From an uncultured bacterium (GTDB lineage Bacteria > Abyssobacteria > SURF-5), in NCBI GenBank assembly GCA_964510165.1, contig CAZEBC010000059.1, positions 1 through 13,941 on the forward strand: DNA of 13,941 bases. Reading direction: 5' to 3'. Under the pieces are notes generated by a model. It did not search any database and was not told where the DNA came from. It saw nothing but the letters and a program-made list of their open reading frames with translations. The first letter of the stretch is position 1; every line of letters starts with the position of its first letter. The position numbers and the translations under genes were made by a program. Positions 5,192-8,973 of the stretch are shown here, piece after piece.

Positions 5192-5207
5192 TTCGGCGAA
5201 CGGCGCC

Positions 5208-5233
5208 GTAAGGGCGGCCCTGCGGGGCCGCCC
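5208..5233. repeat. REP-like palindrome between the chaperone and cytochrome b genes
   Basis: GTAA then GGGCGGCCC-TGCG-GGGCCGCCC: perfect 9-bp stem, 5212-5220 pairing with 5225-5233. Confidence 0.6.
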
Positions 5234-5254
5234 GATCATCGAATATGTGCAGAC

Positions 5255-6016
5255 ATGAAGAAGCTCACAATAAAAGTTACTGAGACCCAGCTATGGCGTT
5301 CCATCTTTCGCCACAAGTTCTCCGACACGCCCCGCAATAGGGCGCTGACGGTCGTATCCAATTTCTTCCTGCATTTGCATCCTCCCAAGGTGCACGTCGT
5401 GGGCCTCAAGATCAGACACACGTTTTGCCTCGGCGGACTCACCTTTTTTATGTTCCTGGTCGAGACCGTCACCGGCGTCTTGCTCATGTTTTATTACAGG
5501 CCAACGGTCGAATACGCCTATCTCGACATGCGCCTGCTCGAGCATGTCGTAAAATTCGGGCCCATCATGCGTAACCTCCACCGCTGGGCGGCGCACGCCA
5601 TGGTGATACTGGTCATGATGCACATGCTCCGCGTATTCCTCACCGGCTCGTACAAGCCCCCCCGCGAGTTCAATTGGGTGGTCGGCGTCATGCTCCTGGT
5701 GCTGACGCTCCTCTTGAGCTTCACCGGATACCTCCTGCCCTGGGACCAGCTTTCCTTCTGGGCCATAACGGTCGGCACGCGCATGGGCGGCGCCACACCG
5801 TTCCTCGGGGCGGAAGGCCCGTTCCATTCCCTTCTGGGAATCGGCCCCGACAACGACATCCGCTTCCTCCTTCTTGGAGACACGGCCGTCGGGGAAAACG
5901 CCCTGCTCAGGTTTTACGTGCTCCATTGTATTCTGCTTCCCTTGGCGGCAACCGTACTGGTATTCGTTCATTTTTGGCGGGTGAGAAAAGATGGCGGTAT
6001 CTCGCATCCACTCTGA
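5255..6016 (+). CDS. petB: Cytochrome b6-type (short, N-terminal cytochrome b) subunit of a Rieske/cytb-family complex
   Basis: [12 protein letters not shown]; heme b His pairs in [23 protein letters not shown] and [54 protein letters not shown] carries the b6-type heme ci Cys (5426-5428). The C-terminus [14 protein letters not shown] resembles the b6 ending RKQGISGPL. Confidence 0.92.
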
Positions 6017-6740
6017 GCTTAAGGAACAGCCATCCCAGGCTCGCGAGAAAAGGCTCGATGCGGACTACGAATTTGTGATGCCGCATCTCGTCATGATGGA
6101 GCTTATCGCAGCCATTCTGGCCAGCATTGTCCTTCTCGTGTGGTCAATGACGGTCAACGCGCCGCTCCTCAGCATCGCCGATCCCAACAAGACGGAAAAC
6201 CCCGCGAAGGCCCCCTGGTATTTCGTCGGTTTGCAGGAACTGCTCGTGTACTTCGACCCGTGGATCGCGGGTGTCGTGATACCGCTCCTCATAATCGCAG
6301 GCCTTATGCTGATCCCCTACCTCGACGTGAATAAGGCAGGAGTCGGAACCTATACATTCAAGAAACGAAAAGCGGAGGTCTCAAACTATATCTTTGGGTT
6401 CGCCTTGTGGATTATTCTGATACTGGTCGGCCAATTCCTGCGAGGCCCCAACTGGCAGTTCTACTGGTTATGGGAAGACTGGTCCGTCGCGAAGAGCGCC
6501 GAGGAAACCCTCGTGAATTTCCCGCTGTGGGCGGGCATCACATTCCTCGCCCTCTATTTCGGTCTGGGACTGAGCCTGCCAGCCCTCATTTGGAAAGGAC
6601 TGCACAGAAAGATGGGCACGGCCAGGTATGTGATCGCCTTTACATTGGTTCTTCTTATGTATGGAGTCGTCATAAAGATTTTCTTGCGACTTGCATTCCA
6701 CATACGCTACATCCTGGCTACTCCTTGGTTCAATATTTGA
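5991..6740 (+). CDS. petD: Cytochrome b6 subunit IV-like protein (C-terminal half of cytochrome b), extended to about 5 transmembrane helices
   Basis: PHLVMMEL..., [35 protein letters not shown] (aligns with subunit IV ADP..TP..I.PEWYF) and LIPYLD. Five hydrophobic segments by eye. The ATG at 5991 overlaps the cytochrome b gene by 26 nt; the start could alternatively be near 6075-6078. Confidence 0.8.
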
Positions 6741-6762
6741 CTGAAGTGCGCCGGAGTCATTT

Positions 6763-8973
6763 ATGAGCACAATCAGGGCAAAAACGATTCATCGCACGCT
6801 CTTCGTCGCGGCGACGCTCCTCTTTGCCGCCCTCAGCTACGGCGCGTACCTCCAGGAGACCCGCAAGGAATGGGTCGATTTCCAAAAGGAATTCAAGAAT
6901 CTCTCCAAGCGGAGAATTCAGGCAAAACTCGATGAAGCCCTAAGGAACAGCGACCAATCGTCTCAAGAGAAGTGGATGAAACGATTGTTGGAGGTCGAAT
7001 CGTCCGCAGCCCAACTTCGCCAGATTTTCCTGCCCGATGCGAACGTGAGAGACCTCTGTACCACTTGCCATCTCGGCATCGAGGACCCTCTCTTCGCAGA
7101 TGCGCCCGAACCCTTCAAGACCCATCCCGGCCGTATGCTCGACCTGCACCGCGTGCAACGCTTTGGCTGCACGGTCTGTCACCACGGCCAGGGCGTCGGC
7201 GTCACTACCGAGGCGGCTCACGGCTATGTGGAAACATGGTACAGGCCGCTCCTCCCGAAGGAACACGTCGAGGCGACATGTATCGGGTGTCACGAAACCT
7301 CATACGGCCTCGAAGGCGCCGAACGGCTTGAGCAGGGCCGCCTCACCTTCGCCAAATACGGCTGCTATGGCTGCCATAGCTCCCGCGGGTTTGAGAACCT
7401 GCCCAAATTCGCGCCCACTTTTGAGGGCTTCGCATCCAAACTCGCCGACGAACGCTGGATGCTGAGCTGGCTCAAAACGCCGGAAAAAATGCGTTCAACT
7501 ACCATCATGCCCACATTCAAGCTATCCGATGAGGAAATCCGTGACCTCACCGCCTTCGTGCTCTCTCTGAAAACGGAAAAGGAATATCCCAAGGTCAACC
7601 TCTCGGCGGCCTCCGCCCAGGACGGCGAGCGCCTCTTTACCGAACTCGGCTGCCGCGCATGCCATTCCTCCAAGAAAGACGAAGCCCCGCTCGAACGGCG
7701 TGTGCCTCTCCTGATCGATGCGGGCACGAAGCTCAACCCAAACTGGATTTTCGAATACCTTCGGGACCCAAAACAATATAATCCCGACACGCCCATGCCC
7801 AAACTCGATATCACCGAGACCGACCGCCTCAACCTGACCGCATATCTGATGACTCTCACGGCGAACGCCGACATCGTTAAGTCGGAACAGCTTACCGCCA
7901 AGGGCGCCTCGGTCGAGAATGGCGAGAAAATCGCGCAGTTGCAGGGCTGCTATGGCTGCCACAGGGTCGAATCCCTCGAAAAGGGTCCGATGCCCGGCGT
8001 CGAAGTGGCCGAAGTCGCCAAAAAGGCGCTCGATGAACTGCCCTTTGGAAACTCCACCGTTCCGATGACCAAATGGGATTGGATACTGAACAAGATCAAG
8101 ACGCCGAAGGTCTACGAAACATCCGATATGCCCCTCAAGATGCCTGAATACAAGTTCGAAGGTGACGAACCGCAACTCCTCACCACATACTACCTGTACA
8201 ACGCCCCGCTCCATTTGCCCGGAAATTACATGGCCGAGGCTACCTGGCAGCAGCGGCGCGGTCAGGCAGGCGAGCATCTGGTGACTTACTACAATTGCCG
8301 CGGCTGCCACATGTTTGAGGAGAACGCCAAGCCCCGTATCGACCAGTTCATCGACCTCAAGACCTATGTGCCTCCCAGGCTCGTCGGCGAGGGCGAAAAG
8401 GTCCAGCCCCAATGGGCCTTCCAATACCTCAATGGGCCGGTCCCGATGCGCCCGTGGCTGAAAATGCGGATGCCGACATTCTCCTTCACTTATGAACAAT
8501 TGGAAGATGCGATCAACTACTTCTCCATAAAGGCCGCTTCTCCCGAAGACGCGCGCGTGCCCTACGTCATCCTCCCCAGGAAAGAAGATATTCCGCAAAT
8601 CGAATTCGACATGGGCGAGTATCGCCTCCTCGCCGACAAATGCATGCAGTGCCATCCGGTTTCCCTCGAGGCCGGTCTCCCGCAGGACGTCAAGCTCGAG
8701 GACCTCTCCATAAACCTCATGCTTTCCAAAACCAGGCTTCGCTTCGAGTGGATCAAGAATTTCCTGCGAAACCCCGACAAGTACGCCGGAGCGGGAACCA
8801 AGATGCCATATGTCTTCTATACCCCTGAAGGCGTTCCCAGGGTGTCGGATGCGGAAATGTGGATCGATTACGTCACGCAATATCTGATGGTCATGGAGAA
8901 AATTCCCGAGGCCCCGCCCGAGGAAGAAAAGAAACCGGAAGATGAAGTGGATTGGACTCAGATGACCTATTGA
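6763..8973 (+). CDS. Membrane-anchored octaheme cytochrome c
   Basis: N-terminal hydrophobic anchor TLFVAATLLFAALSYGAYL, then a charged helical stalk. Eight CxxCH motifs with first Cys codons at 7057, 7168, 7279, 7363, 7651, 7948, 8296 and 8641. RBS GGAG just upstream; acidic C-terminal tail. Confidence 0.92.
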   Translation: MSTIRAKTIHRTLFVAATLLFAALSYGAYLQETRKEWVDFQKEFKNLSKRRIQAKLDEALRNSDQSSQEKWMKRLLEVESSAAQLRQIFLPDANVRDLCTTCHLGIEDPLFADAPEPFKTHPGRMLDLHRVQRFGCTVCHHGQGVGVTTEAAHGYVETWYRPLLPKEHVEATCIGCHETSYGLEGAERLEQGRLTFAKYGCYGCHSSRGFENLPKFAPTFEGFASKLADERWMLSWLKTPEKMRSTTIMPTFKLSDEEIRDLTAFVLSLKTEKEYPKVNLSAASAQDGERLFTELGCRACHSSKKDEAPLERRVPLLIDAGTKLNPNWIFEYLRDPKQYNPDTPMPKLDITETDRLNLTAYLMTLTANADIVKSEQLTAKGASVENGEKIAQLQGCYGCHRVESLEKGPMPGVEVAEVAKKALDELPFGNSTVPMTKWDWILNKIKTPKVYETSDMPLKMPEYKFEGDEPQLLTTYYLYNAPLHLPGNYMAEATWQQRRGQAGEHLVTYYNCRGCHMFEENAKPRIDQFIDLKTYVPPRLVGEGEKVQPQWAFQYLNGPVPMRPWLKMRMPTFSFTYEQLEDAINYFSIKAASPEDARVPYVILPRKEDIPQIEFDMGEYRLLADKCMQCHPVSLEAGLPQDVKLEDLSINLMLSKTRLRFEWIKNFLRNPDKYAGAGTKMPYVFYTPEGVPRVSDAEMWIDYVTQYLMVMEKIPEAPPEEEKKPEDEVDWTQMTY

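Follow-up and report, generated by a model that had tools for sequence, protein, structure and literature searches.

The closest described relatives of the genes reported here are found among Rieske/cytochrome b complexes and among molybdenum enzymes of the type II dimethyl sulphoxide (DMSO) reductase family. Within the former, the APWY clade is defined by a split cytochrome b, a CxGG motif, a wide phyletic scatter and a Rieske protein of 'Mid+' to high potential, and the available text of the survey that defines it states that no complex of the clade has been characterised (Kao & Hunte 2014, PMC4122944). The same text describes an APWY bc1-like complex of Geobacter metallireducens, encoded in a cluster with p-cresol methylhydroxylase, for which a reversed Q cycle reducing menaquinone was proposed (PMC4122944). 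Among the molybdenum enzymes, haloarchaeal nitrate reductase clusters, as far as the accessible text describes them, hold NarC, a bc1-type cytochrome b, and the EbdC-like protein Orf7 beside the type II enzyme (PMC8301774). Ethylbenzene dehydrogenase (EBDH, EbdABCD; PDB 2IVF) and the putative alkane hydroxylase AhyABC of Desulfococcus oleovorans Hxd3, as presented in the accessible text of PMC7803848, are also close relatives. We report a locus of an uncultured Abyssobacteria bacterium (assembly GCA_964510165.1) in which a complete cassette for an EBDH/AhyA-like periplasmic molybdenum enzyme separates Rieske from cytochrome b within one operon. The analysed stretch, called the window below, corresponds to bases 1 to 13941 of the 19,822-nucleotide contig C59 (CAZEBC010000059.1).

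In the window, genes for the alpha, gamma, beta and delta subunits of the molybdenum enzyme are followed on the same strand by those for a cytochrome b6-type subunit, a subunit IV-type protein and an octahaem cytochrome c (Table 1). A first reading made from the sequence alone (the sequence-only reading) had pointed out that only 63 nucleotides separate the chaperone gene from the cytochrome b gene, at the spot where a Rieske gene usually sits, and that none of the listed open reading frames (ORFs) carries a Rieske motif. Both observations hold: the chaperone ORF runs to 5191 and that of cytochrome b begins at 5255, and the spacer between them (5192-5254) has no Rieske coding capacity. A six-frame regular-expression search for C.H(12-30)C..H found no match in the entire contig C59, and the four PF00355 matches of a six-frame search of the genome are all on other contigs. 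Among 80 relatives, namely the best cytochrome b matches from other phyla, 69 have a Rieske match 33 to 372 nucleotides before the cytochrome b gene, so that its absence directly before the gene is unusual.

The Rieske gene lies on the other side of the enzyme cassette. Base 1 of the window is also base 1 of C59 and falls inside the alpha gene, which is cut at about codon 127. On contig C106 of the source genome (G000), one of the four PF00355 matches corresponds to a bc-type Rieske gene (G000:C106:11752-12321). Its product of 189 amino acids carries an SRREWL twin-arginine motif, a hydrophobic anchor, and both cluster-binding boxes with the disulphide cysteines (CTHLGC...CPCHGSQF); the ligand and disulphide residues are all invariant in the Rieske alignment (A2). 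C106 terminates 1.5 kb beyond this gene, and its last 75 nucleotides, behind an AAGGAGG box, encode MSDFRFTRRQFLKLTGTATLALSLD, that is, the first 25 codons of an alpha gene with its start and twin-arginine translocation (Tat) signal. The order on C106 is MerR, Rieske, ferredoxin, zinc-dependent alcohol dehydrogenase (ADH; 358 amino acids, cytoplasmic) and alpha start, all on the same strand with gaps of at most 42 nucleotides. Inspection of the DNA upstream of position 1, together with a genome-wide PF00355 search, had been suggested as a check on the Rieske-free module; the check goes against that module, with a Rieske gene just upstream of an alpha start.

Orthologous alpha genes have 969 codons and a Tat signal at the start. 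The source genome contains only two EBDH-like alpha genes, the one on C59 and a second one (G000:C294:133-3002) on a 3-kb contig, with 79% amino acid identity between them. The C294 gene carries a start of its own, preceded by unrelated DNA; the C59 gene is therefore the only one lacking a start, and we read the arrangement as C106, then about 300 unassembled nucleotides (alpha codons 26 to 126), then C59. The first 25 codons of the C294 gene match the tail of C106 in protein, and 76 nucleotides are 92% identical. Because of this near-repeat, the assembly broke in the 5' end of alpha, with the C294 paralogue as the likely cause, and for this reason the Rieske gene falls outside the window. The cluster's apparent lack of a Rieske gene is thus an artefact of a contig boundary inside the alpha gene.

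The same gene order is found in related genomes. Our collection comprised 11 species genomes of the phylum, 10 of them in the family of the source genome, and an octahaem orthologue (65 to 73% identity) was present in all nine other family genomes. Five of the orthologous clusters (G002, G004, G007, G008 and G010) extend upstream of alpha, and in all five a Rieske gene is found there on the same strand, its product being 73 to 80% identical to the C106 protein; the contigs of the other four family genomes end before this region. The conserved order in the five clusters is MerR, Rieske, ferredoxin, ADH, alpha, gamma, beta, delta, cytochrome b, subunit IV, octahaem and beta-helix; six genes, spanning about 7 kb, separate Rieske from cytochrome b. 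A search with the Rieske protein detected an orthologue (at least 74% identity) in eight of the 10 family genomes. With the alpha protein as query, 63 metagenome loci were obtained. Where alpha was at least 60% identical, 17 of the 19 contigs with at least 1.5 kb of upstream DNA carried a Rieske gene in it, on the same strand, and cytochrome b lay downstream in all 12 with at least 3.5 kb of downstream DNA; 10 contigs showed both flanks. Most of the metagenome clusters lack ADH and have the order MerR, Rieske, ferredoxin, alpha, with only the small ferredoxin gene separating Rieske from alpha.

These counts bear directly on the sequence-only reading, which had described a module without a Rieske gene, asked whether orthologous clusters consistently lack one, and suggested a possible non-bifurcating quinone oxidoreductase fed by the octahaem protein. 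The opposite was found in the clusters, and the proposal falls with it, as a Rieske gene upstream of alpha was the observation which that reading had itself named as decisive against it. Its other suggestion, a Rieske protein borrowed from elsewhere, was right in placing the gene outside the window, but 'elsewhere' turns out to be about 7 kb upstream in the same cluster. Had a bc complex without a Rieske protein been real, it would have called into question the accepted requirement for a Rieske head at the Qo site.

Of the four subunits of an APWY-clade Rieske/cytochrome b complex, the window supplies three, at 5255-8973. The four haem-ligand histidines of helices B and D (H109/H123 and H224/H239) are invariant in alignments A1 and A4 and align to those of cytochrome b6. 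The best solved match of the window cytochrome b is cytochrome b6 (6rqf_I, 160.8 bits, compared to about 91 bits for bc1 cytochrome b), and its FCLGG haem ci motif aligns to YCLGG of the same chain, which predicts a covalently bound haem. In subunit IV, which is about 90 residues longer than that of the paralogue on contig C12, the motif NPAKAPWYF has APWY in place of PEWY, as in the paralogues and in relatives with an adjacent Rieske gene; the APWY Qo motif was found in 15/15 nested clusters and in 75/80 relatives. The octahaem protein has its CxxCH motifs at residues 99, 136, 173, 201, 297, 396, 512 and 627, and all eight are present in 15/15 nested clusters and in 51/52 distant relatives with a long match. 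This eight-CxxCH protein is the normal c subunit of the clade, nearly always with an adjacent Rieske gene, and it is therefore not a Rieske stand-in; the idea that its N-terminal trihaem domain substitutes for the Rieske head was rejected, since the same octahaem accompanies Rieske-containing operons. The Rieske signature (second and fourth residues after CxCH) is S-F in all 16 rows formed by the source genome and the 15 nested clusters, and S-Y or S-F in 75 relatives. By the rule given in the available text of Kao & Hunte (2014, PMC4122944), S-F falls in the 'Mid+' class, at about +260 mV.

By their profile scores, alpha, beta, gamma and delta are assigned to the type II DMSO reductase family (EBDH/Ser/Clr/Pcr/Nar-type). 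Gamma, delta and beta score over the cut-offs of PF09459, PF02613 and TIGR03478, respectively; alpha reaches 753 bits with TIGR03479 (cut-off 984.75), in a sequence lacking its first ~126 residues. The best solved relative of alpha is EbdA (2ivf_A, 670 bits, compared to 397 bits for perchlorate reductase PcrA). The enzyme was not recovered as ethylbenzene dehydrogenase proper by the NCBIfam models for EbdA to EbdD, where scores and cut-offs were 702/2000, 455/740, 127/400 and 101/360. Alpha keeps the aspartate aligned to the molybdenum ligand D223 of EbdA. Gamma aligns to EbdC (2ivf_C), with methionine and lysine kept at counted positions M108 and K201, which we take to be the haem b ligands. 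Homologues with 75 to 79% identity are labelled Candidatus Abyssubacteria, and one of them, 79% identical, was named ethylbenzene dehydrogenase by its source. The accessible text of the CANT-HYD paper reports hits of the AhyA model in this same phylum (PMC8767102).

Pairing of the upstream Rieske protein with the window cytochrome b was examined within and across genomes. Cytochrome b genes and membrane-type Rieske genes number three each in the source genome, and the other two pairs (on C12 and C109) are adjacent. Identities to the window cytochrome b are 87 to 90% for the orthologues, 62 to 69% for three Rieske-adjacent paralogous modules, 48% for C109 and 42% for C12; the corresponding identities to the C106 Rieske protein are 74 to 80%, 36 to 45%, 33% and 34%, and the rankings agree between the two proteins. 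FastTree trees were computed for 99 Rieske/cytochrome b pairs; 98 of 103 loci had both proteins, and the pair of the window was added to them. One group of 16 rows, namely the source genome, five genome clusters and 10 metagenome clusters, recurs in both trees, with local supports of 98 for cytochrome b and 97 for Rieske. We conclude that the Rieske protein at the head of the cluster is very probably the fourth subunit of the window's complex.

Several observations weigh against this assignment. C106 and C59 are not physically joined; Logan contigs of four public runs were compared with bases 1-1500 of the window, and in three of the four they reach 166 to 225 nucleotides past base 1, being short and neither showing nor refuting the join. 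With the C106 protein as query, G003 (77% complete) and G009 (91% complete) yielded no orthologous Rieske. Two metagenome loci with a 75%-identical alpha (L160 and L180) have unrelated genes upstream and no Rieske within 1.1 to 2.3 kb; they may correspond to the C294-type paralogue. The mirror-tree correlation is moderate (Pearson 0.69 for patristic distances over all pairs), and for nested versus other pairs the Spearman coefficient is 0.42 against a permuted mean of 0.20, a value reached in 2 of 500 permutations; the assignment leans on the 16-row group and on gene order instead. Complex prediction of Rieske with cytochrome b and subunit IV supported the pairing weakly, at a score of 0.46 (best of three controls, 0.14), with runs agreeing in at least 94% of contacts and a partner predicted local distance difference test (pLDDT) value of at least 79. 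The mark used is reached by 116/157 solved complexes and 2/215 mismatches, and the passes at or below 0.60 comprise only 18 of the 157 solved complexes and both mismatches; this is a textbook pair with solved structures, for which a pass may reflect memory, and the method does not distinguish paralogous Rieske proteins.

The same data allow two other readings to be weighed. In one, cytochrome b, subunit IV and octahaem c form a Rieske-free, non-bifurcating quinone:cytochrome c oxidoreductase, as the sequence-only reading had it, and the upstream Rieske serves otherwise, for example as an AioB-like subunit of the molybdenum enzyme. The unusual separation of Rieske and cytochrome b, the Rieske-less DNA upstream of L160 and L180, a relative (L086) with no Rieske within 10 kb upstream, and the weak association in silico would fit such a reading. 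But the cluster Rieske is conserved and groups in its tree exactly as cytochrome b does, its nearest relatives directly adjoin APWY cytochrome b genes, and the Qo motif and octahaem match those of complexes with an adjacent Rieske. Moreover, distant EBDH-like clusters have contiguous Rieske, cytochrome b and cytochrome c genes beside alpha, and type II enzymes already own a complete Fe-S/haem b wire. We consider the Rieske-free reading highly improbable. That the module borrows the Rieske protein of C12 or C109 is scarcely credible: both genes exist, and docking in silico would not tell them from the cluster's own, but each adjoins its own cytochrome b, each is only 33 to 34% identical to the cluster's Rieske, with the same ranking for cytochrome b (42 to 48%), and the cluster has a dedicated, co-inherited Rieske. 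The fourth-subunit assignment is retained below.

The position of the molybdenum cassette is specific to this alpha clade, since no alpha, beta, gamma or delta homologue was found within 10 kb of cytochrome b in any of the 80 relatives from other phyla. A second arrangement was found at three more distant metagenome loci (L161, L164 and L168; alpha 53 to 55% identical), where MerR, Rieske (S-Y), a fused APWY cytochrome b and a tetrahaem cytochrome c lie contiguously, directly upstream of alpha. In the paralogous module G005:C9 of a family genome, a gamma-like gene closely precedes the Rieske gene. From this contiguous layout and from G005:C9, it follows that APWY complexes and EBDH-like enzymes were united more than once. 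In L168, about 7 kb separate alpha from the downstream beta and delta genes.

The physiology of the host was assessed from its genome. It contains dsrA (567 bits) and a futalosine-pathway MqnA/D match, menA was not found in it, and the host appears to make menaquinone. Besides cytochrome bd, there is one COX1-family ORF of 764 amino acids, a length that suggests the qNOR type; no NrfA match over the cut-off was obtained in this genome, and the host has no clear high-potential respiratory chain. On contig C8, two dsrA/dsrB-like matches with identical scores (G000:C8:7853-10059 and 22141-24347) lie 14.3 kb apart, reflecting a genuine duplication or else an error of assembly.

The complex would then be a dedicated link from the haem b of gamma to the menaquinone pool, through octahaem c and the Rieske centre. 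Proton-motive force would drive a reversed Q cycle that carries electrons from the hydroxylase uphill into menaquinone. This direction is suggested by dsrA, the lack of a clear high-potential chain, menaquinone, the hydroxylase relatives of the enzyme and the cytoplasmic ADH of the cluster: hydroxylase electrons have no obvious high-potential sink, and a complex run in reverse would therefore place them in menaquinone. We regard the uphill direction as the likeliest, at about even odds. A bolder proposal, which we put forward only tentatively, is that insertion of the cassette marks an obligate hydroxylase-bc supercomplex, in which a reversed Q cycle at the APWY Qo site, driven by proton-motive force, raises high-potential electrons of anaerobic alkyl or alkane hydroxylation into menaquinone. 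If true, such a supercomplex would explain how molybdenum-dependent hydrocarbon hydroxylation can be coupled to low-potential respiration such as sulphate or sulphite reduction.

The same four-subunit complex might instead run forward, with menaquinol oxidised by a normal Q cycle and electrons passing by Rieske and octahaem c to the haem b of gamma; the molybdenum enzyme would then be a periplasmic reductase of some acceptor, an oxyanion or similar. With an S-F Rieske at the potential given in the available text of PMC4122944, oxidation of menaquinol would be strongly downhill. Further points tell in the same sense and against the uphill direction: alpha stays under the EbdA equivalog cut-off and has a proline at the position aligned to the EbdA active-site residue H192, most related clusters lack ADH, the same broad family includes reductases that take electrons from bc complexes, and in the text of PMC8301774 a type II enzyme is paired with NarC and an EbdC-like protein. 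On the other side stand the hydroxylase EbdA as the nearest solved relative, the name of the 79%-identical homologue, the AhyA-model hits reported for the phylum in the accessible text of PMC8767102, and the cytoplasmic zinc-dependent ADH in the window's own cluster; in addition, the sole published proposal for an APWY complex, as given in the text of PMC4122944, is for reverse operation. We therefore consider forward operation rather unlikely.

The coordinates of all features are collected in Table 1.

Table 1. Genes and other features of the window (contig C59), and the ferredoxin gene of contig C106
Feature	Coordinates	Strand	Remarks
Alpha subunit (molybdenum-bis(molybdopterin guanine dinucleotide), Mo-bisMGD), type II DMSO reductase-family (predicted)	3..2534	+	5'-truncated by contig start, 843 of about 969 codons
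Gamma subunit, EB_dh haem b protein	2538..3242	+	PF09459 105.5 bits
Beta subunit, four-cluster Fe-S protein	3285..4412	+	TIGR03478 486.2 bits, cut-off 480.7
Delta subunit, NarJ/EbdD-type assembly chaperone	4481..5191	+	PF02613 69.7 bits; TIGR03482 138.2 bits
Spacer between delta and cytochrome b	5192..5254	+	63 nucleotides; 9-bp G+C hairpin at 5212-5233
Cytochrome b6-type subunit (N-terminal half of cytochrome b)	5255..6016	+	PF00033 142 bits
Subunit IV-type protein (C-terminal half of cytochrome b), Qo motif APWY	5991..6740	+	PF00032 20.3 bits
Membrane-anchored octahaem cytochrome c	6763..8973	+	Eight CxxCH; Cytochrom_C and CBB3 domains
Secreted parallel beta-helix/fn3 protein, 1046 amino acids	9004..12144	+	PF13229 103 bits
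DUF2851 protein	12323..13831	+	
2x[4Fe-4S] ferredoxin, 91 amino acids, no signal peptide	G000:C106:12348-12623		Between Rieske and alpha

Of the 17 metagenome clusters with a Rieske gene, 16 keep the ferredoxin gene between it and alpha; at a guess, the ferredoxin is a NapF-like maturation factor. The hairpin of the spacer before cytochrome b has arms GGGCGGCCC and GGGCCGCCC, a 4-nucleotide loop and no T tail. The spacer fold has a predicted energy of -35.9 kcal/mol (z = -3.6), and no promoter- or terminator-like site was found within 5192-5254. Orthologous spacers are 63 to 178 nucleotides long, and strong folds are frequent among them; they share no sequence, and the hairpin was therefore rejected as a conserved element. 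It may act as an intercistronic element of mRNA stability or processing. The beta-helix/fn3 protein encoded directly behind the octahaem gene is 53 to 60% identical in the orthologous genome clusters and is also present in 10 metagenome clusters (38 to 43% identity). Past the window, on the same strand of C59 (15762-19820), are genes for an Fe-S protein (280 amino acids) and a molybdopterin oxidoreductase with a Tat signal (1068 amino acids).

The module on C109 (L009 835-10000) is a second one of APWY type, comprising an FAD/NAD(P) oxidoreductase that carries Fe-S domains, a Rieske protein, a fused cytochrome b of 518 amino acids and a cytochrome c of 888 amino acids with nine CxxCH motifs. 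It is directly followed by an ORF resembling a molybdenum enzyme alpha subunit (open frame of 1194 amino acids, 252 bits with TIGR03479). L086, from a metagenome-assembled genome of Binataceae, is the sole relative of the APWY-type cytochrome b to have 10 kb of upstream DNA with no Rieske gene or motif in it; the ORFs found there instead are SecD-like and methyltransferase-like.

The system is a four-subunit APWY-type complex, of a known but uncharacterised clade, whose operon is split around an EBDH-like enzyme, and the conserved nested gene order is its single notable trait. No description of an association between EBDH/Ahy-type enzymes and Rieske/cytochrome b genes was found in the open-access literature searched, and the terms ethylbenzene, Rieske, bc1 and molybdopterin do not occur in the available text of Momper 2018 (PMC6121073). 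An uncharacterised Rieske/cytochrome b clade has thus been wired repeatedly to EBDH-like molybdenum enzymes, in two gene arrangements; five genome clusters from the family of the source genome and 10 metagenome contigs show the nested one with both flanks. The system offers a candidate electron path from anaerobic molybdenum hydroxylases to the quinone pool of organisms that lack a high-potential acceptor, and a natural system for asking whether the APWY Qo motif marks complexes that run in reverse.

Compared with known systems, the complex shares with the APWY clade its split cytochrome b, the APWY motif, the CxGG haem ci site and a Mid+/high Rieske signature. It differs in that a whole enzyme cassette separates Rieske from cytochrome b, in its haem ci motif (FCLGG, where WCMGG is commonest in the clade), and in an insertion of about nine residues in the Rieske proteins of the nested clusters. 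The best-scoring NCBIfam models for the three window proteins are those of Geobacter ExtP, ExtQ and ExtS (NF040969-71); orthology was rejected, with scores under the equivalog cut-offs (267.6/290, 54.7/150 and 37.2/100). With cytochrome b6f (PDB 6RQF, 1VF5, 1Q90) the complex has in common the split into b6 and subunit IV, the haem ci cysteine and the 14 residues between the helix-D histidines, whereas octahaem c replaces cytochrome f, the Qo motif is APWY and not PEWY, and the setting is non-photosynthetic and probably uses menaquinone. As with the G. metallireducens bc1-like complex, its genes lie beside those of a periplasm-facing enzyme of an anaerobe, a hydroxylase there and a presumed hydroxylase here, and reverse operation was put forward for that complex as it is for this one; the partner here is an EBDH/AhyA-like molybdenum enzyme and not a flavocytochrome. 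The G. metallireducens complex was reportedly the subject of Peters 2007 and Johannes 2008, known to us only through Kao and Hunte's account.

The haloarchaeal nitrate reductase cluster presumably also includes a Rieske protein, NarB. As described in the accessible text of PMC8301774, that cluster resembles the present one in encoding a type II enzyme together with Rieske/cytochrome b-type membrane subunits. It differs in being that of an archaeal reductase with forward electron flow, in having no octahaem c, and in the clade of its cytochrome b. With EbdABCD and AhyABC, finally, the cassette shares the alpha, beta, gamma and delta set, the aspartate aligned to the molybdenum ligand, methionine and lysine at the presumed haem b positions, and the Tat signal on alpha; the gene order here is A-C-B-D, and Rieske and cytochrome b genes flank the cassette.

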